The notes under the pieces are model-generated. The model made no database searches. It had not been told where the DNA came from and saw only the letters and a list, made by a program, of their open reading frames with translations. Made by a program: the position numbers and the translations under genes. A stretch of DNA of 64,000 bases, taken from Tagaea sp. (GTDB lineage: Bacteria; Pseudomonadota; Alphaproteobacteria; CACIAM-22H2). The stretch covers positions 1,056,001 to 1,120,000 of the forward strand of contig CBDIIB010000004.1 in NCBI GenBank assembly GCA_965279525.1. Direction: 5' to 3'. Positions 4,971 to 62,613 of this stretch are shown here, one piece after another. The stretch's first letter is position 1; each line of letters begins with the position of its first letter.

Positions 4971-5045
4971 TTCCGACTCCCCATCCCCTTGGCGACATCC
5001 TAGGGAACGCGGTCCGTCCGGAATACGTGCTATGATCGTATTACT

Positions 5046-5140
5046 TACATATGTATTTATAGTTGTATTTAGTCCTTCACCGGGATATAAGTCCAGCATT
5101 GGCCGAAACCATCCGGCCATGCGCTGTTTGAACCGGTGAA
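5046..5140 (+). promoter_or_regulatory. Leader of dispersed element copy 1: sigma70-like promoter, hairpin and boxA-like site
   Basis: TTGTAT (5063-5068)-N17-TATAAG (5086-5091); hairpin TGGCCG/CGGCCA 5100-5119; GCTGTTTGAA 5123-5132. All conserved in copy 2. Confidence 0.6.
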
Positions 5141-5156
5141 TATGGAACGGCAGCCA

Positions 5157-5403
5157 GCCGCAAGGTTTGGTTGACGGCGTGCGATTTCCGTCAACGTCAA
5201 CTGGCTTTCGTGGAAAATCAAGGGCATGGCCTGTTGACGGTCAACGCCCGTCAACTTCCGTCAACGACCCGCGTCAACTTCCGTCAACACGGCCGCAAGA
5301 ATGACGAGACATGCGCATGTGACGTCGCATGTCGCATCGGTTTCGTGGCGGATCAACGGGTTGGACAGGAGACGGTAACATGACGTCTCCTCGTGTCTCG
5401 TCA
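5157..5403. repeat. Two tandem palindromic units (135-bp period): unit A with GTTGACGG/CCGTCAAC arms, unit B with TGACGAGAC/GTCTCGTCA-type arms
   Basis: Nine GTTGAC/GTCAAC hexamers in 5170-5288. GCCGCAAG at 5157 and 5292; TTTCGTGG-N3-ATCAA at 5206 and 5341. Confidence 0.8.
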
Positions 5404-5507
5404 CCCTCACCCCGCAACGTATACGTTGCGCCTCTCCCGCAGGCGGGAGAGGGGACGCACCGGTCGAGTCCCCTCTCCCCTCCGGGGAGAGGGTTAGGGT
5501 GAGGGGG
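5404..5507. repeat. REP-like palindrome doublet (CCCTCACCC...CCTCTCCC-loop-GGGAGAGGG, two inverted copies)
   Basis: Hairpins at 5431-5452 and 5471-5493, just after the mrcA stop; homologous doublet at 54539-54635. Confidence 0.85.
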
Positions 5508-5513
5508 ACGGTC

Positions 5514-7933
5514 CTAATAAATCCCGTCGCTCGTCTCGCCGCCTTGCGTGGAAATTCCCTGCAGCGGCGACGTGAACTGCCCTGCCCCGTCGAGCACCTG
5601 CTGGTCGGCGCGCACTTCGGTGCCGGGCTTGAAGGCTTCCCAGATCGCGTCGCGTTCGCCGGGGCGTGCGGGGGCCCCGCTCTGCGGGTTGACGCGCACG
5701 AGCCGGATGCCCGGCGGCGTGCGGAACGGCACCACCGGCGTGCCCTGCAGCACTTCGGCCATCACGTCGCGGAAGATGGGCACCGCGACCGAAGAGCCGG
5801 TCTCGTTGGGCCCCAGCGTGCGCGGCGCGTCGAACCCGACCCACACGCCGACCGCAAGGTCGGGCGAGAAGCCCAGGAACCACGCATCGAACGAATCGTT
5901 CGTGGTCCCCGTCTTGCCGCCGAGCGGACGGTTGAGGTCGCGCAGGCGGCGCGCGGTGCCGCGTTCGACCACGCCCTGCAGCATCGACACCATCTGGAAG
6001 GCGCTGAGCGGATCGACCGCCTGCGCGCGCATGTCGGGCAGTTCGGGCGGTGCCGAGTCCGGCAGCCACACGTCGATGCGGCAGGCCTCGCAGGCGCGCG
6101 TGTCGTGGCGGAACACGGTGCGGCCCTCGCGGTCCTGCACGCGGTCGATCAGCGTGGGTTCGATGCGCTTGCCGCCATTGACGAACATCGCGTAGGCCGT
6201 GGTCATGCGCATCAACGTCGTCTCGCCCGCGCCCAGCGCCATCGCAAGGCTGGGTGCCAGCTTGTCGACCACGCCGAGCCGCTCGGCGCTCTCCGCGACC
6301 TTGTCCATGCCGACGGCCTGCGCCAGCCGGATCGTCATCAGGTTGCGCGACTGTTCGATGCCCACGCGCATCGGCGACGGCCCGTAGAAATTCCGCGAAT
6401 AGTTGGCCGGACGCCACGGCGGCAGGCCCGGCCCCTGGTCGACGACGATGGGCGCGTCGAGGATCAGGCTCGCCGGCGAGAAGTTGCTGTCGAGTGCGGG
6501 CAGATAGACGAACGGCTTGAACGACGAGCCGGGCTGGCGCTGGGCCTGCGTGGCGCGGTTGAACTGGGAAAGCTCGTAGCTCCACCCGCCGACGAGGGCG
6601 CGCACGCGCCCGGTGTGCGGGTCCATCGCGACCACGCCGCCGCCCACGTTGGGGATCTGGCGCAGGGCGAAGCGCTTCGCCGCCGCAAGCGGTTCGACCA
6701 GCACGATGTCGCCCACCGCCACGACGTCGGCGGGCACGCGCACGGCGGGGCCCACGCGCTGTTCCTTCTCGGTGCGCCGCGCCCAGCGCATCTCCTCGAC
6801 CGGCAACGCGCCCGTCGTGCCGTCGGCGAACGCGATCTCGGCGGCGTCGTTGGCAAGGGCTCGCACCAGCGCCAATTGCCATTCGGCGGCCGCACCGCCG
6901 GGCCGCGGATATGCCGCAAGCTGGCGGCGCCAGTCGGTAACACTGGCATCGATCCTTGCCGACCGGCCCGCGCCAGCCGTGGCGCCGGTCGTAGGCGAGC
7001 AGGCCCCGGCGCAGGGCCGCCTCGGCGGCCGCCTGGGTCTTGGGGTCCATCGTCGTACGCACGTTGAGCCCGCCGCGGAACAGGTCGCGCTCGCCGAAGC
7101 GCGCCAGCAGTTCGCGGCGCACCTCCTCGGCGAAATAGTCGGCGCGCACGGTGTCTTCGGGGCCGCGCTGGCGCGTGATGATCGGCGTCTGCGCGCGCGT
7201 TCTCGTAGTCGCCCGGCGTGATGTGGCCGTCTTCCAGCATGCGGCCCAGCACCCAGTCGCGCCGCTCGCGCGCGCGCTCCATGTAGCGGCGCGGGTCGTA
7301 GTTGTTGGGCGCTTTGGGGAGCACGGCGAGGAACGCGGCTTCGGCCAGCGACAGCTCGTCGAGCGAACGGTCGAAATAGTTGGTCGCGGCCGAAGCAACG
7401 CCATAGGCGCCGAAGCCCAGATAGATCTCGTTGAGATAGAGCTCGAGGATGCGCCGCTTGGAAAGCGACTCCTCGATGCGCAGCGCGAGGATCGCTTCCT
7501 TGGCCTTGCGCTCGAGCGACACCTCGTTGGTCAGCAGCATGTTCTTGGCGACCTGCTGCGTGATCGTCGATGCGCCCACCGGCCGGCGGGCGCCCAGGTT
7601 CGTGATGTTCTGGAAGGCCGCGCGCGCGATGTCGGGCAGGCTCACGCCGGGATGCGTGAAGAACGTCTTGTCTTCGGCCGCGAGGAACGCGTTGACCACA
7701 CGCCGCGGGATCGCGTCGAACGGCACGAAGGTGCGCCGCTCGATGGCGAACTCGGCAAGGATGCGCCCGTCGGCCGCGTGCACGCGCGTGGTGACCGATG
7801 TCTGGTAGGCGGCAAGCGTCTTGTGGTCGGGCAGGCCGCGGCCGAAATACCAGAAGCCGCCAAGCGTCGCCGCCGTCCCGCCGACGAGGCCGAGAAAAAT
7901 CAGAACGACAAGGGCGATGATCCCACGACGCAT
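5514..7933 (-). CDS. mrcA: Penicillin-binding protein 1A (class A PBP); two frameshifts near 7195 and 6954, probably sequencing errors
   Basis: Transglycosylase motifs AEDKTFFTHPG, GASTITQQVAKN, RKAKE and LYLNEIYLG; transpeptidase motifs SSFK, SRN and KTGT; spread over three consecutive frames; next to amiC. Confidence 0.92.
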
Positions 7934-9965: not shown

Positions 9966-12836
9966 ATGGCTAAACGTATGTTGATCGACTCGACCCACCC
10001 GGAAGAAACCCGCGTGGTCGTTCTCGACGGGAACAAGCTGGACGAGTTCGATTTCGAAACCGCCAGCAAGAAGCAACTCAAGGGCAACATCTATCTGGCG
10101 CGCGTCACGCGCGTCGAGCCCTCGCTGCAGGCGGCGTTCATCGAATTCGGCGGCAACCGCCACGGGTTCCTCGCCTTCAACGAAATCCACCCGGACTATT
10201 ACCGCATCCCGGTCGCCGACCGGCAGGCGCTGATGGCCGACGACGAGGAAGAAACGGTGCGCTTCGAGCGCCCGCGCCGCCCGCGTCGCGAGGAGCGCGA
10301 TGCCGAAGCGGCGCACGCCGATCCGGTGCACGCCGATCCTGCATCGGCCGATCCGGCATCGGCCGATCCCGCATCGGCCGATCCGCTCCCGACCGTCCCG
10401 TTCGACGATGTCGCCGGTTCCGGCCCGGTCGAACTCGCACCGCCGGCTTCGCAGCCTGCCGAGCAGCTTTCGTTTCCGGTCGCCGACGCGCCGCCCGCCG
10501 CAAGCGAGCCGGCAACGGCCGACGCCGCTCCGCTGGGCTTCGATGCGCCCGCGACGGAAGCGGAACCCGGCGAAGCGGTCACCGGCGAAGTGCTGCCGCC
10601 CGACGGCGTTCCGTCCGACCTGCCGGCCGGCGACGACGCGGCCGAACCGCGCCAGCACCACGTCGAATCGCTCGGCGGCGACACGGTCGACGACGCGCAC
10701 GAGACGCGCCGCCGCGCGCGCCCGCAGCGCCACTACAAGATCCAGGAAGTGCTCAAGCGCCGCCAGGTGCTGCTCGTCCAGGTCGTCAAGGAAGAGCGCG
10801 GCACCAAGGGTGCGGCTCTCACCACGTACCTGTCGCTCGCAGGCCGCTACTGCGTGCTGATGCCCAACACCGACCGGGGCGGCGGGATCTCGCGCCGCAT
10901 CACCTCGCAGCAGGACCGCAAGCGCCTCAAGAACCTGATCGAGGAGCTCGACCTGCCCGACGGCATGGCCGTGATCCTGCGCACCGCCGGCATGGAGCGC
11001 GAGACCGCCGACATCCGGCGCGACTACGAATACCTGATGCGCCTGTGGGAGGAGATCCGCGACCTGACGCTGCGCTCGTCGGCGCCGTCGCTGATCTACG
11101 AGGAAGGAAGCCTCATCAAGCGCGCGATCCGCGACATGTACTCGGCCGATATCGACGAGATCCTCGTCGAGGGGCAGAACGGGTTCGAGTCCTCGCGCCA
11201 CTTCATGGGCATGCTGATGCCCAGCGACATCGGCCGCATCCGGCGCTACGACGACGCGCAGGTGCCGCTGTTCCAGCGCTTCCAGGTCGAGAACGAGCTC
11301 GACGAGATGCACCTGCCGACGGTGCGGCTCAAGTCGGGCGGCTACATCGTCATCAACTCGACCGAGGCGCTCGTCGCCATCGACGTGAACTCCGGCCGCT
11401 CCACGCGCGAGCGCAACATCGACGAGACGGCGTACAAGACGAACCTGGAGGCGGCCGACGAGGTCGCCCGCCAGCTTCGCCTGCGCGATCTCGCGGGCCT
11501 GATCGTCATCGACTTCATCGACATGGACGACCACCGTCACCAGACGAACGTCGAACGTCGCCTGAAGGACGCGATGAAGTCCGACCGCGCGCGCATCCAG
11601 ATCGGCCGCATCTCGGCCTTCGGGTTGCTCGAGCTGTCGCGCCAGCGTCTGCGTCCGTCGATCTCGGAGATCAGCTTCGAGGTCTGCCCGCACTGCAACG
11701 GCACCGGCCGCCTGCGCTCGACCGAGTCCGCGGCACTGCACGTTCTGCGCGGGATCGAGGAGGAAGCGGGCAAGATGCGCGCGGCCGAGATCGCGGTCTA
11801 TGTCGCCACTCCGGTCGCCCTTTATCTCTTCAACAACAAGCGTGCGGCACTGGCGGGCATCGAGAGCCGCTTCGGCCTGCGCGTCAATTTCCATTCGGAC
11901 GACACGCTGATCCCGCCCGCCTTCCGCATCGAACGCGCCAAGACCAAGGCGCCCGACGCGCAGGGTGCGGCACCGATCCGCAGCGTCGAGGACTTCTCGC
12001 CGTCGACAGGCACGTCGACCGACCCCAGCGACGTGCGCGAGCGCGACGATCTGGGCGACGACGACGCCCCGCCCGCCCGCAGCGAAAGCCCGCGCCATTC
12101 GCGTGGCGGTGAACGCGGCGGCGAGCGCGGCGGTGAACGTGGTGGCGAGCGCGGCGGCGAAGGCGGTGGCGAGGAAGGCAGCGGTCGCGGCCGGCGCCGG
12201 CGTCGGCGCGGTCGCGGCGATCGCGGCGATCGCCCCCAGCAGGGTGGCGAGCCGCAGGGCGATGCGGCCGAGACGGCCGTGCAGGCGGCCGAAGGCGTGC
12301 CGGCACAGGCCGACCGCGAAGCCCCGCAGGGTGGTGAGTTCCCGAATGAAGGTGCGCCCGGCGATGCCGGCGGCGAGGACGGCGCACGCCGTCGCCGCCG
12401 TCGCGGACGTCGCGGCGGCCGCCGTCGCGGGCGCCGTCCGGAAGACGGCGAAGTCACGGCCGATGCAGGCGCGCCGGAAGGTGCGGCGAACGGCGAAGCG
12501 GCACCCGTGCCGATGGCGACACCGGCCAATCCCGATCCGGTCTATGACGCACCGGCCTTCCGTCCAGAGCCGCAGCGCGTCCGCGTGGCCGGTCCGGGCG
12601 ACGACCGTTTCCCGCCGCCCGAGCGCGTGGCGGGTCCCGGCGATGCGCATGACTGGCCCTGGAACAAGCAGGCAGGTGCGCCAGCACCCGCTTCGGCAGG
12701 CGAACCGATCCGCGTGAGCGAACCGGTACCGGCACCGATCGTGGCAGCACCGCCCGAAACGGCGGCCCCGCCGCCCGAGGACGACGATCCGAACCGGCCG
12801 AAGAAGCGTGGCTGGTGGAACCGCCTGACCGGCTGA
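9966..12836 (+). CDS. rne: Ribonuclease E
   Basis: MAKRMLIDSTHPEETRVVV, S1 domain GNIYLARVTRVEPSLQAAF, IDVNSG, DFIDM, CPHCNGTG zinc link, Arg-rich C-terminal region ending GWWNRLTG. Confidence 0.96.
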   Translation: MAKRMLIDSTHPEETRVVVLDGNKLDEFDFETASKKQLKGNIYLARVTRVEPSLQAAFIEFGGNRHGFLAFNEIHPDYYRIPVADRQALMADDEEETVRFERPRRPRREERDAEAAHADPVHADPASADPASADPASADPLPTVPFDDVAGSGPVELAPPASQPAEQLSFPVADAPPAASEPATADAAPLGFDAPATEAEPGEAVTGEVLPPDGVPSDLPAGDDAAEPRQHHVESLGGDTVDDAHETRRRARPQRHYKIQEVLKRRQVLLVQVVKEERGTKGAALTTYLSLAGRYCVLMPNTDRGGGISRRITSQQDRKRLKNLIEELDLPDGMAVILRTAGMERETADIRRDYEYLMRLWEEIRDLTLRSSAPSLIYEEGSLIKRAIRDMYSADIDEILVEGQNGFESSRHFMGMLMPSDIGRIRRYDDAQVPLFQRFQVENELDEMHLPTVRLKSGGYIVINSTEALVAIDVNSGRSTRERNIDETAYKTNLEAADEVARQLRLRDLAGLIVIDFIDMDDHRHQTNVERRLKDAMKSDRARIQIGRISAFGLLELSRQRLRPSISEISFEVCPHCNGTGRLRSTESAALHVLRGIEEEAGKMRAAEIAVYVATPVALYLFNNKRAALAGIESRFGLRVNFHSDDTLIPPAFRIERAKTKAPDAQGAAPIRSVEDFSPSTGTSTDPSDVRERDDLGDDDAPPARSESPRHSRGGERGGERGGERGGERGGEGGGEEGSGRGRRRRRRGRGDRGDRPQQGGEPQGDAAETAVQAAEGVPAQADREAPQGGEFPNEGAPGDAGGEDGARRRRRRGRRGGRRRGRRPEDGEVTADAGAPEGAANGEAAPVPMATPANPDPVYDAPAFRPEPQRVRVAGPGDDRFPPPERVAGPGDAHDWPWNKQAGAPAPASAGEPIRVSEPVPAPIVAAPPETAAPPPEDDDPNRPKKRGWWNRLTG

Positions 12837-53348: not shown

Positions 53349-53361
53349 AGGAGTGTTTCCG

Positions 53362-54306
53362 ATGCTGAAGCGTCCGTTCACTGGCGTGATCGCCGCCCCG
53401 TTGCTGCCCATGCACGACGACCAATCGGTCGACTGGACCACGCTCGAGCGCTACATGGACTGGATCGCCGGTCAGAACCCGGCCGCCATCGCGATGAACA
53501 TGGATGCCTCGGAAGTGATCTCGCTGACCGAGGACGAACAGTTCGAGGTCGTGCGCGTGTGCCGGGCCGGCATCGGCGGCCGCGTGCCCTTCCTGTCGGG
53601 TATCGTCGCGGGCTCGACGGCGGCCGCGGCTGCCAAGGCCGTGAAGCTGCGCGATGCCGGCGTGGAAGGCTTCGCGATCTTCCCGCCCTTCCCCACGTTC
53701 AGCGGCGCACCCGTGCCCGAGCAGATGATCGTGCGCTACCACCGCGCGATCGCCGACGCCTCGGGCCTGCCGATCATCTGCTTCCAGTTCCCCAAGAACT
53801 GGGGCCCGGACTACACGCCCGAGATCCTGCGCGCCATCGCCGAGATCCCGCAGCTCGTCGCGATCAAGGAATCCTCGTTCGACGTGACGCAGACACTGTC
53901 CACCATCAGCGGTGCTGCCAATCTGAAGCGGCCCATCGGCGTGCTGACGGGCAGCGACACCTTCATCTTCGAGGCGATGGTGATGGGCTGCGACGGCGCC
54001 CTGATCGGCTTCGGCGGCACGGCCACCGCCGAACTCGTCGCCATGCACGCGGCCGTGAAGCGCGGCGACATCTCGGCCGGCAAGGCGATCTGGGACCGGC
54101 TCGGCCCGCTCGCCCGCTGGTGCTGGCGCCCGCCGATCCGCGACTTCCGCCCGCGCATGAAGGAAGCGCTGAAGCTCCAGGGCATCTTCCCGTCGGCCAT
54201 GTGCCGCGAGCCGCAGCTTGGCGTCGACGATGCCGACCGGCGCGAGATCGCCGCGATCCTGAAGACGGCCGGCATGCTGGGAACGGGCATGCGCAAGGCC
54301 GGATGA
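53362..54306 (+). CDS. DapA/NAL family class I aldolase-fold protein with an atypical active site
   Basis: FTGVIAA, AIKES (Schiff-base Lys), LTGSD and GCDGALIG; RBS AAGGAG. Confidence 0.85.
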   Translation: MLKRPFTGVIAAPLLPMHDDQSVDWTTLERYMDWIAGQNPAAIAMNMDASEVISLTEDEQFEVVRVCRAGIGGRVPFLSGIVAGSTAAAAAKAVKLRDAGVEGFAIFPPFPTFSGAPVPEQMIVRYHRAIADASGLPIICFQFPKNWGPDYTPEILRAIAEIPQLVAIKESSFDVTQTLSTISGAANLKRPIGVLTGSDTFIFEAMVMGCDGALIGFGGTATAELVAMHAAVKRGDISAGKAIWDRLGPLARWCWRPPIRDFRPRMKEALKLQGIFPSAMCREPQLGVDDADRREIAAILKTAGMLGTGMRKAG

Positions 54307-54523
54307 GTTGACGGGTGTTGACGGGGCGTTGACCGTCAACACGCATCCCGTTGGAATTGCTCGATAGCCAGTTGACGGCGACCGGATCTGCTTGACCGTC
54401 AACCAAACTTTGCGCCCGGCCGCTCCGCTTCACGATGTCAAACAGCGCACGGCCGGATGGTCTCGGCCGATGCGAGGACTCTAATCTGGATCAGGACTAA
54501 ATACAACTATAAATACTTATGTA
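54307..54523 (-). repeat. Dispersed element copy 2: promoter, hairpin, boxA-like site and one GTTGAC/GTCAAC unit
   Basis: Reverse complement aligns by eye with 5046-5265; 30 of the first 31 nt are identical; six GTTGAC/GTCAAC hexamers. Confidence 0.85.
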
Positions 54524-54538
54524 GGATCTCGCACAGAT

Positions 54539-54635
54539 ACCCTCACCCCTGCCCTCTCCCGCAAGCGGGAGAGGGGGACGTCAGCATCGGTGTGATCCCC
54601 TCTCCCGCTTTGCGGGAGAGGGTTAGGGTGAGGGT
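54539..54635. repeat. REP-like palindrome doublet
   Basis: ACCCTCACCCCTGCCCTCTCCCGCAAGCGGGAGAGGG plus an inverted partner ending GGGAGAGGGTTAGGGTGAGGGT; homologous to 5404-5507. Confidence 0.85.
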
Positions 54636-54642
54636 GAACGCT

Positions 54643-55062
54643 CTAACGCGGTGCTGCAACCTGCGTCCGGAGCTTCGCAAGAAACGCGCGCTTGTCGCGT
54701 TTCGCCCACGTCGCGTAGCTCCACGCCCCTTGTGCCGCGACGAGCGTGCCGCTGCCGTCGTCGACATAGAGGATCGCGGACAACGTCTTCCCGCTGGCGA
54801 CGATCTCGACCTTCGTGCGCCGATAGCCGTCGCCTTCATAGGCGTCGAGCAGACGCCCGGCGGCGGCGGAAAGACCGCGTGCCAGCACGCCTTCCATCTC
54901 CGCTTTCGGATCGGGGCGCGCGATGGGAAAGGTCACGCCTTTGGCGGCGAAGCGCCGCCAGCCGGGCAGCGTGGCGGGTTCGACCGTTTCGGGCGCAAGC
55001 CGGCCCAGCACGGCCCGGCGCACGTCCGGGTCGATCAGGGTGCCGTAGAAGAAGAAACGCAT
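54643..55062 (-). CDS. Gamma-glutamylcyclotransferase (AIG2-like) family protein
   Basis: FFFYGTL and LDAYEG..Y.R. Confidence 0.85.
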   Translation of the reverse strand: MRFFFYGTLIDPDVRRAVLGRLAPETVEPATLPGWRRFAAKGVTFPIARPDPKAEMEGVLARGLSAAAGRLLDAYEGDGYRRTKVEIVASGKTLSAILYVDDGSGTLVAAQGAWSYATWAKRDKRAFLAKLRTQVAAPR

Positions 55063-61350: not shown

Positions 61351-62613
61351 ATGGCAGATCAAGAACCCACGAATGGCGGGGCCCTGTCGCCCGGCGCCAT
61401 GAAGCTCAAATGGCTGGCCGACCGCCACAGCGCCTTCCTGTTCGGAAGGCCCGGCGGCCAGCGCGCCGATTCGCGCAAGCAGAATTTCCGGGGTGCCGTG
61501 CTCGACGGCGGGAACCTGTCGTCCGCGATCCTGTCGGGCTGCATTTTCGCGGAAGGCCGGCTGCCGGACTGCGACATGTCGATGGCCGACCTGTTCGCCG
61601 CCGACTTCTCGGGCTGCGACCTGTCGCGCACGTCCTTCCGCAAGGCCGACCTTCGCGCGGCGAGCTTCATCCACGCGAAGATGCGCGGCTGCGACCTGTC
61701 GGGTGCCGACCTGCGGCCGGGCCAGATCATCGACTGGGCGAGCCTGAATTCCGAGACCAAGGAAGTGACCGCGAGCTTCGAATCCGCCGATCTCGAGAAC
61801 GCGCGGATGGGGGCTTCGGATCTCTCCTTCGTCAATTTCGAGAATGCCTCGCTGAAGGGCGCACAGCTCGCCGGCGCCACGCTGTTCGCGGCCAACCTGC
61901 GCGGGGCCGATCTGGTCGGCGCCAAGTTCGACGGCGCCAAGCTCAAGGGCGCACAGCTCGCCGGCGCCAAGCTCAACGGGGCCTCGTTCCGCAACGCCGA
62001 CCTTGCGGGCGTCGACCTGCGCGGCGTCGACATGAACAACGTCCAGATGGGCGGTGCCAGGCTCGAAGGCACCATCTATGCGAACCCGCCGCCCGGCGAG
62101 AAGCTGCCCGACGACCTGAAGCCGATCGTCGACCTGCACCGGCAGTGGGCCGACACGGGCGGGCGCGAAGGCGTGCGCGCGGACTTCGCGGGCCGCGACC
62201 TGACCGGGACCGATTTCGGCGGCTGCGATCTTTCCGGCGCGCGCTTCGACGGTGCCGTCCTCAGCCGCGCGCGTTTCGTCGCCGCGTCGCTGCGCCTGGC
62301 GAGCCTGCTGTCGGTCAGCGCCGAGCGCTGCGATTTCGCCGACGCCGACCTGTCGGGCGCCATGATGCTGGGCGCACGTCTCGAAGGGGCGTCCCTCGTC
62401 GGCGTCGTCGCACGTCCGATGGAGATGCGCCGCCACGACGGCTCGCCCGCCGGCAAGCGCACGCCGACGAGCTTTGCCAACGCCTCGCTGGTGGGTGCCG
62501 ACCTGCGTGCGGCCGACCTGCGCGCCGCCAACTTCAGCGGGGCTGACCTGCGCGGCGCCAACCTTGCCGGCGCCTTCCTTGCCAATGCCGACCTGACCGG
62601 GACGCGGCGCTAG
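61351..62613 (+). CDS. Pentapeptide repeat protein
   Basis: Extensive A(D/N)L-type repeats, with internal HSAFLFGRPGGQRA and HRQWADTGGREGVRA caps. Confidence 0.9.
   Translation: MADQEPTNGGALSPGAMKLKWLADRHSAFLFGRPGGQRADSRKQNFRGAVLDGGNLSSAILSGCIFAEGRLPDCDMSMADLFAADFSGCDLSRTSFRKADLRAASFIHAKMRGCDLSGADLRPGQIIDWASLNSETKEVTASFESADLENARMGASDLSFVNFENASLKGAQLAGATLFAANLRGADLVGAKFDGAKLKGAQLAGAKLNGASFRNADLAGVDLRGVDMNNVQMGGARLEGTIYANPPPGEKLPDDLKPIVDLHRQWADTGGREGVRADFAGRDLTGTDFGGCDLSGARFDGAVLSRARFVAASLRLASLLSVSAERCDFADADLSGAMMLGARLEGASLVGVVARPMEMRRHDGSPAGKRTPTSFANASLVGADLRAADLRAANFSGADLRGANLAGAFLANADLTGTRR

Follow-up and report, generated by a model that had tools for sequence, protein, structure and literature searches.

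Why should a genome carry what looks like the start of an rRNA operon, with promoter, hairpin and boxA, in a place where no gene follows? Nus-factor antitermination at boxA is textbook material for rRNA and for phage lambda, and later work has added a few mRNAs and CRISPR arrays. In the window (by which we mean the whole 64,000-nucleotide stretch of Tagaea sp. DNA that was analysed) two 95-nt segments, 5046-5140 and 54429-54523, form the top inverted repeat of a repeat search, with 79% complementarity, and both contain such a leader. A sequence-only reading had taken them for a two-copy element with a boxA of the rRNA or CRISPR style, whose downstream array would be transcribed as untranslated RNA under repressor control. 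We followed this up in the window, in the rest of the genome (G000; 4.35 Mb in five contigs, 66% G+C, 97% complete) and in its relatives.

Anatomy and neighbours of the two window copies

The likeness between the two copies runs on past the leaders ("heads" below) and through a GTCAAC-rich body. The copies are inverted and inward-facing, 49.3 kb apart, and have the following parts:

5046..5071, + strand: copy 1, conserved AT-rich upstream block, made up of the palindrome TACATATGTA (5046-5055) and the GTATTTA repeat
5053-5059 and 5065-5071, + strand: copy 1, direct repeat GTATTTA-N5-GTATTTA, its second copy overlapping the -35
5063..5091, + strand: copy 1, predicted sigma-70-type promoter, predicted start near 5098
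5063-5068, + strand: copy 1, -35 TTGTAT, with a 17-nt spacer to the -10 TATAAG at 5086-5091
5100..5119, + strand: copy 1, boxB-like leader hairpin, TGGCCG (5100-5105), 8-nt loop AAACCATC, CGGCCA (5114-5119)
5122..5142, + strand: copy 1, boxA region, CGCTGTTTGAAC (5122-5133) with core GCTGTTTGAA (5123-5132), then GTGAATA (5136-5142)
5158..5291, + strand: copy 1, body module of the GTCAAC type, opening with CCGCAAGGTTT
within 5158..5291, + strand: copy 1, first hairpin of that module, GGTTGACGG-N10-CCGTCAAC, then the linker ATCAAGGGCATGG
5233-5245, + strand: copy 1, palindrome GTTGAC-G-GTCAAC, after the linker
5240-5288, + strand: copy 1, GTCAAC array with a 10-nt period (Tandem Repeats Finder: period 10, 4.6 copies)
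5292..5403, + strand: copy 1, second body module, GAGAC/GTCTC type, closed by TGACGAGACA / TGTCTCGTCA
within 5292..5403, + strand: copy 1, inner hairpin of the second module, GGAGACGG-loop-CGTCTCC, then one more GTCTC
54429..54523, - strand: copy 2, head (upstream block, promoter, hairpin, boxA)
54506-54501 and 54483-54478, - strand: copy 2, promoter, -35 TTGTAT, N17, -10 TAGAGT, predicted start near 54471
54469-54450, - strand: copy 2, hairpin, CGGCCG (54469-54464), N8, CGGCCG (54455-54450)
54446-54437, - strand: copy 2, boxA GCTGTTTGAC, followed by GTGAAG (54433-54428)
54303..54428, - strand: copy 2, body, a single GTCAAC-type module

The hexamers, their spacers, the direct repeat overlapping the -35, the hairpins and the boxAs of both copies thus all lie where the sequence-only reading had placed them. 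It had also held that no gene follows, and this is correct: copy 1 runs towards the 3' end (stop near 5514) of a class A penicillin-binding-protein (PBP) gene, and copy 2, which lies just 3' of a GGACT-family gene on the same strand, faces the stop of a DHDPS-family gene (53353-54306, +), the stop codon of this convergent gene being overlapped by the last repeat of copy 2. As there is no open reading frame (ORF) after either copy, an untranslated transcript would be their natural product, and that half of the earlier proposal stands. A scan of both loci found no recognisable terminator-like site after either copy.

Several other features of the window may be noted here. The class A PBP gene (5514-7933, -) reads as two overlapping ORFs in different frames, one for its transpeptidase part (5514-6875) and one for its transglycosylase part (6464-7933), possibly because of a frameshift or an assembly error. 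Both copies are flanked by a second, unrelated palindromic repeat, CTCTCCCGC..GCGGGAGAGGG / GGGTGAGGG (window 5405-5520 and 54540-54650), which also occurs inside or beside units in relatives. Elsewhere, 61819-61998 holds two tandem 90-nt copies with 70% identity within an ORF whose translation resembles pentapeptide repeats, and 10315-10386 holds four copies, at 15-nt spacing, of a CGGCCGATCC-type unit.

Promoter and upstream block

The putative promoters are far from consensus. TTGTAT matches TTGACA at three of six positions, the -10 of copy 1 lacks the final T, and a sigma-70 consensus scanner reported no promoter-like site at copy 1 or at copy 2. In an alignment of 26 distinct copies from this genome and its relatives, the upstream block is near-invariant and the promoter has the conserved columns GTTG.A and TAT, so that the promoter is a prediction from conservation and context, not from consensus strength. 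The upstream block consists of a TACA-N2-TGTA palindrome and GTAT.TA repeats, at and 5' of the weak -35. A block in this position fits an activator or an UP-like element at least as well as a repressor, and the repressor control that had been proposed finds no support in it. Small shares of four metagenomic or metatranscriptomic runs were also searched, and one of these, an RNA run (X4), gave a single 223-nt contig with about 90% identity over 5044-5207; since the promoter lies within this contig too, the contig is no evidence for a start near 5098 and may derive from carried-over DNA, and it gives no usable signal for ends or level.

The leader hairpin covaries

The 26 distinct heads with the TTGTAT promoter variant were used for a covariation test of the hairpin. 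The 6-bp helix is paired in 98.1% of the 156 cells, and none of 500 shuffles reaches either the observed pairing or the observed covariation score, as the sequence-only reading had anticipated from the one compensatory difference between the window copies. Helix registers slid along the alignment are only 20-55% paired. The pairs are of several types, UA (11), GC (8) and CG (7) at the outer position, GC (17), AU (6) and GU (2) at the third, and UG (15) and CG (11) at the fourth; read on the opposite strand, the 17 G-U cells become A-C mismatches, which places the helix on the strand expected to be transcribed from the promoter. Conservation extends to the 8-nt loop, mostly AGACCATC, a hint that more than pairing is recognised. 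Both the predicted consensus fold and the predicted single-sequence fold contain the hairpin.

The boxA matches that of the native rrn operon

The boxA element recruits NusB/NusE and thereby starts assembly of the rrn and lambda antitermination complexes (PMC12360218; PMC3177189). A comparison with the signals of this genome's own rrn operon bears out the assignment of the Tagaea element. The rrn leader boxA is GCGCTCTTTGAAAAGTGAATACGG (core with tail GCTCTTTGAA..GTGAATA; extended, GCGCTCTTTGAAAAGTGAATACGGAATGG), 212 nt before 16S, and that of the 16S-23S spacer is TGTGCTGTTTGACATGGTGAAG (GCTGTTTGAC...GTGAAG; extended, TGTGCTGTTTGACATGGTGAAGAGG). Copy 1 has GCGCTGTTTGAACCGGTGAATATGG (extended, GCGCTGTTTGAACCGGTGAATATGGAACGG), with core and tail GCTGTTTGAA...GTGAATA, and copy 2 has GCGCTGTTTGACATCGTGAAG (extended, GCGCTGTTTGACATCGTGAAGCGG), with core and tail GCTGTTTGAC...GTGAAG; the match to the native leader and spacer therefore goes beyond the core and into GTGAA(T)A. 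Two weak matches of a head profile elsewhere in the genome proved to lie in its own 16S-23S rrn spacer.

The element sits about 25 nt after the predicted start, with no ORF 3' of it, and is unpaired in the predicted consensus fold and in the predicted single-sequence centroid fold. Both nusB and rho are encoded in the genome. One observation counts against a Nus function: both window copies have G at boxA position 4, and C4 mutations abolish function in the E. coli boxA (PMC5725501). The native spacer boxA also has G there, so the position-4 G looks like a trait of the lineage. We also considered that the boxA might be a mini-ORF (ATG/GTG...TGA); its reading frame changes from one head type to another and a Shine-Dalgarno sequence is absent, and we treat the resemblance as coincidence.

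At least 27 units in one genome

The two window copies proved not to be a two-copy element; they represent one of several promoter variants in a family that numbers at least 27 units. Copy 1 as a query gave 15 matches in the whole genome, and a profile of the three full copies gave many partial matches that split into a head part and a body part. The core pattern GCT[GC]TTTGA[AC] occurs 41 times, where 14 are expected from composition: 27 matches are noncoding and lie behind AT-rich promoter-like heads, three are in rrn (one leader, and the spacer counted twice at contig ends), and 11 are chance-like. Thus there are at least 27 gene-less units composed of an AT-rich promoter, a boxA and a modular body of hairpins and 10-nt repeats, spread over four contigs in both orientations. 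Their heads are of at least three unrelated kinds. In the commonest, the -35 region is TTTTCTTGACAACC... and the promoter looks strong (TTGACA-type, AT-rich upstream), the variant of the window copies (TACATATGTATTTATAGTTGTATTTAGTCC) precedes five boxA units in this genome, and a third type is marked by a TCCTAT.ATAGGA palindrome. A predicted hairpin ends two bases 5' of boxA in about ten of the 27 units.

The boxA alone is common to these otherwise unrelated heads. It is, with the bases that follow it, the only information-rich block in an ungapped profile of the 27 units, a result that is circular for the columns set by the search pattern, so features that had not been selected were judged separately; G at -2 (25 of 27), A at +10 (26 of 27) and the GTGAA motif are conserved. 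When body modules were found by their own motifs, 24 of the 31 matches had a boxA within 450 nt upstream on the same strand, and in none of the 31 was it downstream or on the opposite strand. The remaining seven, with no boxA upstream, count against the model of protected noncoding transcripts given below.

The next downstream gene is convergent in 22 of the 27 units, so they are not mRNA leaders, and 12 lie between convergent genes (both counts rest on crude gene calls). Nor do they appear to be tRNA leaders; a tRNA lies within 1.5 kb of only one of the 27, and it is divergent.

Two inverted, inward-facing copies 49.3 kb apart could in theory be the ends of a mobile element of about that size, and a boxA 5' of a repeat array recalls CRISPR leaders, so that the array might instead be a degenerate CRISPR or a repeat RNA like those of type III antitoxins. 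We find either notion very improbable. At least 27 copies on four contigs in both orientations are not what the two ends of one element would give, and copy 1 has its own syntenic flanks in four relatives. The CRISPR style that had been suggested does not hold for the array, whose period is 10 nt and which has no spacers; Rfam gave no match to it, and no nuclease or cas-like ORF is adjacent (the 49-kb interior was viewed as an ORF list).

Body modules

The untranslated bodies are about 100-310 nt long and consist of modules with a common grammar, namely a CCGCAA(A/G)..T opening, a first hairpin, a linker (T/A)TCAA-N4-(T/A)T(G/A), a second hairpin, and arm repeats, which are direct copies of the C-rich 3' arm of the second hairpin at about 10-nt spacing. 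Many close with a T-rich tail such as TTTTGCGG. The modules fall into types by their arms: GTTGAC/GTCAAC (the window copies), GGTTAC/GTAACC and GGAGAC/GTCTCC here, and GGTGAC/GTCACC and GCGAC/GTCGC in addition in relatives. A scan for the generic grammar of a hairpin with repeated arms gave 169 mostly spurious matches in this GC-rich genome, and type-specific motifs were used in its place.

Are these modules RNA structures or DNA sites? From one type to the next, both arms differ in step with the extra repeats, an argument for base pairing. The 17 copies of the GTCAAC type, by contrast, have identical stem arms without a single compensatory change, and vary in their loops and spacers; RNA structure would explain this no better than sequence-specific recognition or recent spread would. 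Copy 1 has five GTCAAC repeats here and its orthologs in three relatives have three, three and two, and one ortholog (L027) has a large insertion within the body, so the precise RNA fold is not under strong constraint. The predicted 308-nt RNA of copy 1 has a fold z of -2.0. At the Rfam gathering score nothing in the window matched, and nine other loci gave only rRNA and tRNA; at E<=10 only chance-level matches appeared. A strict script found a terminator (hairpin and T-run) behind seven of the 27 units, neither window copy among them, and many GTTAC-type units end in a hairpin with a T-rich tail (CTATTGTTT, TGATGATTTGCGG). The array is not a good candidate for a Rho-loading (rut) site, as the bodies are not enriched in C over G; C minus G averages -2.9 per 100 nt, and C exceeds G in only seven of the 27 units.

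The invariant arms bring in a different explanation, in which the family consists of mosaic DNA repeats of the BIME/REP or MITE kind that have settled in "safe" convergent spacers and act, if at all, by binding protein as DNA. A GTCAAC-site binder might occupy the arms and IHF the ATCAA-N4-TTG-like linker, and the promoter and boxA, perhaps derived from rrn, would be passengers without an RNA function. Such repeats would account for the 10-bp phasing and for the repeat number that varies among orthologs, for the free combination of heads and bodies, and for the 12 units between convergent genes; the linker also resembles the IHF consensus. We regard this explanation as unlikely. It leaves unaccounted for a boxA that is kept across unrelated heads and is strictly linked in orientation to the bodies, and a leader hairpin with compensatory changes and strand-specific G-U pairs. 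Moreover, arms that covary across the types GTTGAC/GTCAAC, GGAGAC/GTCTCC, GGTGAC/GTCACC and GGTTAC/GTAACC point to pairing, not to one DNA-binding specificity.

Distribution in the genus and beyond

Four related genomes have a counterpart of copy 1, 78-89% identical to it, in the same place beside the PBP gene. Where a species of the genus has no match to copy 1, boxA units occur nevertheless, built by the same body grammar with different arm sequences. In 15 of 21 genomes of the genus, a boxA followed by GTGAA occurs 8-36 times (26 times in the present one, 23 of these outside rrn), and in the remaining six 0-1 times; the reversed pattern, used as a control, occurs in none of the 21. This patchiness is what mobile or spreading DNA repeats might give, as is one site at which two relatives (G014 and G016) have a unit and the Tagaea genome analysed here has about 35 bp. 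At that filled and empty site, however, we saw no clean ends, terminal inverted repeats or target duplication, the flanks being too divergent to define ends, and a search of the present genome for the Y1/RAYT transposase family PF01797 gave no match (control genomes were positive), so mobilisation of the IS200/IS605 or RAYT kind was set aside.

Outside the genus, 300 other alphaproteobacterial genomes (254 genera) have 0-4 matches to boxA with GTGAA, with one exception, which has 12. The exception (G178), from another alphaproteobacterial family, has the same head logic with unrelated bodies (L123-L128), and looks like an independent expansion of such sites. Each of its 12 sites has a promoter-like head, and its bodies end in the repeated motif GGATGAACCCCATGCACCCATCTT. 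The window copies' body motif, sought in 185,579 species with one genome for each, gave 86 stretches; among the 80 listed, 57 come from seven assemblies labelled Tagaea, Rhodospirillales or "uncultured Azospirillum", and the remaining 23 are single matches in unrelated taxa.

The same promoter block without boxA lies ahead of genes

The conserved promoter block also occurs without a boxA at five loci, four of them in relatives and one here on contig C2. Four of the five have a two-gene operon, whose first ORF has a plausible ribosome-binding site and begins about 60-110 nt from where the block starts. At L022 3521-4752 (-; on C2), and likewise at L071 and L092, the operon encodes a protein of about 160-190 amino acids, for which Pfam gave no match, and then one of about 245 amino acids that matches DUF6973 (E 3.6e-7); at the fifth locus (L096) the ORF that follows the block encodes the DUF6973-type protein itself. 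PADLOC reported nothing for the two proteins. The 3' region of the C2 operon carries GTCAAC- and GTCTC-type modules.

Conversely, a boxA is present in all 26 distinct heads that precede a long untranslated stretch, two of which have a small ORF starting only about 200 nt downstream. Those at L071 and L092 are followed at this distance by a conserved ORF of about 52 amino acids (MAKIAPFHSKK...CSRCARLA), and at L092 a GTCAAC-type module comes after it. The presence of boxA before untranslated bodies and its absence before ORFs is the pattern predicted if boxA protects untranslated RNA from Rho, and the absence before ORFs speaks against the DNA-repeat explanation.

This pattern also bears on a further possibility, that the boxA is functional and the body is nevertheless unprotected. 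The RNAs would then draw off NusB/NusE (and SuhB) as decoys, or would favour termination by Rho, as happens in suhB, and the availability of Nus factors, and hence rRNA synthesis, would be tied to the activity of the unit promoters. There are many units for one assembled rrn operon, the most frequent promoter type looks strong, and boxA can enhance Rho-dependent termination in some contexts (PMC12360218; PMC5725501). Against this, the restriction of boxA to heads with long untranslated bodies is the prediction of protection from Rho, and a pure decoy would need no body at all. We judge this possibility to be quite improbable, more so than DNA repeats.

A model for the units

We think it rather probable that the units are NusB/NusE-loaded, Rho-resistant noncoding transcription units. 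Their transcription, the binding of Nus factors, the resistance to Rho and a function of the RNA body are what we infer from the anatomy described above. An AT-rich sigma-70-type promoter, to whose conserved upstream block a factor may bind, would start an RNA a few bases 5' of the 6-bp hairpin. A single-stranded boxA would come directly after this hairpin, and then GTGAA(T)A, in the layout of an rrn leader. NusB/NusE would bind this boxA and, with NusA and NusG, would make RNA polymerase resistant to Rho, so that the untranslated body of 170-310 nt, made of hairpin modules and 10-nt-period repeats of a C-rich arm, could be completed. The whole would form a lineage-specific modular family, lying mostly against convergent 3' ends and behaving like small-RNA genes. 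The transcripts may serve as small regulatory RNAs, as 3'-end or antisense elements or as a sink for Nus factors, or may have no role. An antisense or 3'-end RNA comes to mind because most units point into convergent 3' ends, and copy 2 reaches the stop of the DHDPS-family gene without a terminator.

More broadly, and with considerable doubt, one might imagine portable promoter and boxA cassettes that have given rise to dozens of Rho-proof units per genome, and with them to a new route to processive antisense or 3'-end RNAs, or to a collective Nus-factor sink coupled to rRNA synthesis. If the noncoding, Rho-resistant reading is true, the 8-36 boxA sites in most species of the genus, lying for the most part on gene-less units with promoters of their own, would make up a larger non-ribosomal Nus regulon than any yet proposed. 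The use of one promoter with boxA before untranslated bodies and without it before ORFs would be a natural experiment on when a transcript needs protection from Rho, and the compact leader (hairpin, boxA, GTGAATA) might serve for the expression of long untranslated RNAs in GC-rich Alphaproteobacteria.

Comparison with known boxA sites and intergenic repeats

Our literature search found no description of a dispersed boxA-led family or of any Tagaea RNA biology, and the family suggests a large and undescribed set of protected noncoding RNAs. The closest parallel is with the rrn leader and spacer sites (boxB, boxA and boxC, with NusB/NusE/NusA/NusG/SuhB/S4), in which a promoter-proximal hairpin is likewise followed by a single-stranded boxA, and to which core and GTGAA(T)A correspond. 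Unlike the rrn sites, the Tagaea units have no rRNA downstream, are dispersed in about 27 places with short bodies, use several unrelated promoters, and have a hairpin whose loop sequence is conserved.

CRISPR-array leaders reportedly (Stringer et al. 2020) carry boxA ahead of long untranslated repeat transcripts that would otherwise be targets of Rho. The Tagaea repeats have a 10-nt period and no spacers, whereas CRISPR arrays have repeats of about 23-50 nt with unique spacers, and the Tagaea units are single and dispersed. The boxA sites in mRNA leaders (suhB and others; PMC5725501) are also non-rRNA sites that were found by their similarity to the rrn boxA. In the survey of Baniulyte et al. 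2017 (PMC5725501), a gamma-proteobacterial genome has 0-7 putative sites, none more than 50 bp from a gene start, and noncoding RNAs were explicitly left aside; the Tagaea genome has 23 non-rrn matches, most without a gene downstream.

As DNA, the units recall the mosaic intergenic repeats of other bacteria, such as the REP/BIME sequences of E. coli (including the IHF-binding RIP type), the BOX elements of pneumococci and the Correia elements of Neisseria. Like these they are modular palindromes around a short linker, intergenic, mostly at convergent 3' ends, and variable in the number and combination of their modules. They differ in carrying their own promoter and a Nus-type boxA in fixed orientation, a combination that, to our knowledge, is found in none of the three. 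The search for a RAYT/Y1 transposase in the Tagaea genome was negative, and the body-motif family is restricted to one genus.

Finally, the nut sites of phage lambda consist of boxA and boxB, and the Tagaea units share with them a boxA and a hairpin with a conserved loop sequence. We know of no lambda-like N protein for the Tagaea units, and in them the order of the two elements differs from that of nut, the hairpin coming first and the boxA second, as in rrn.
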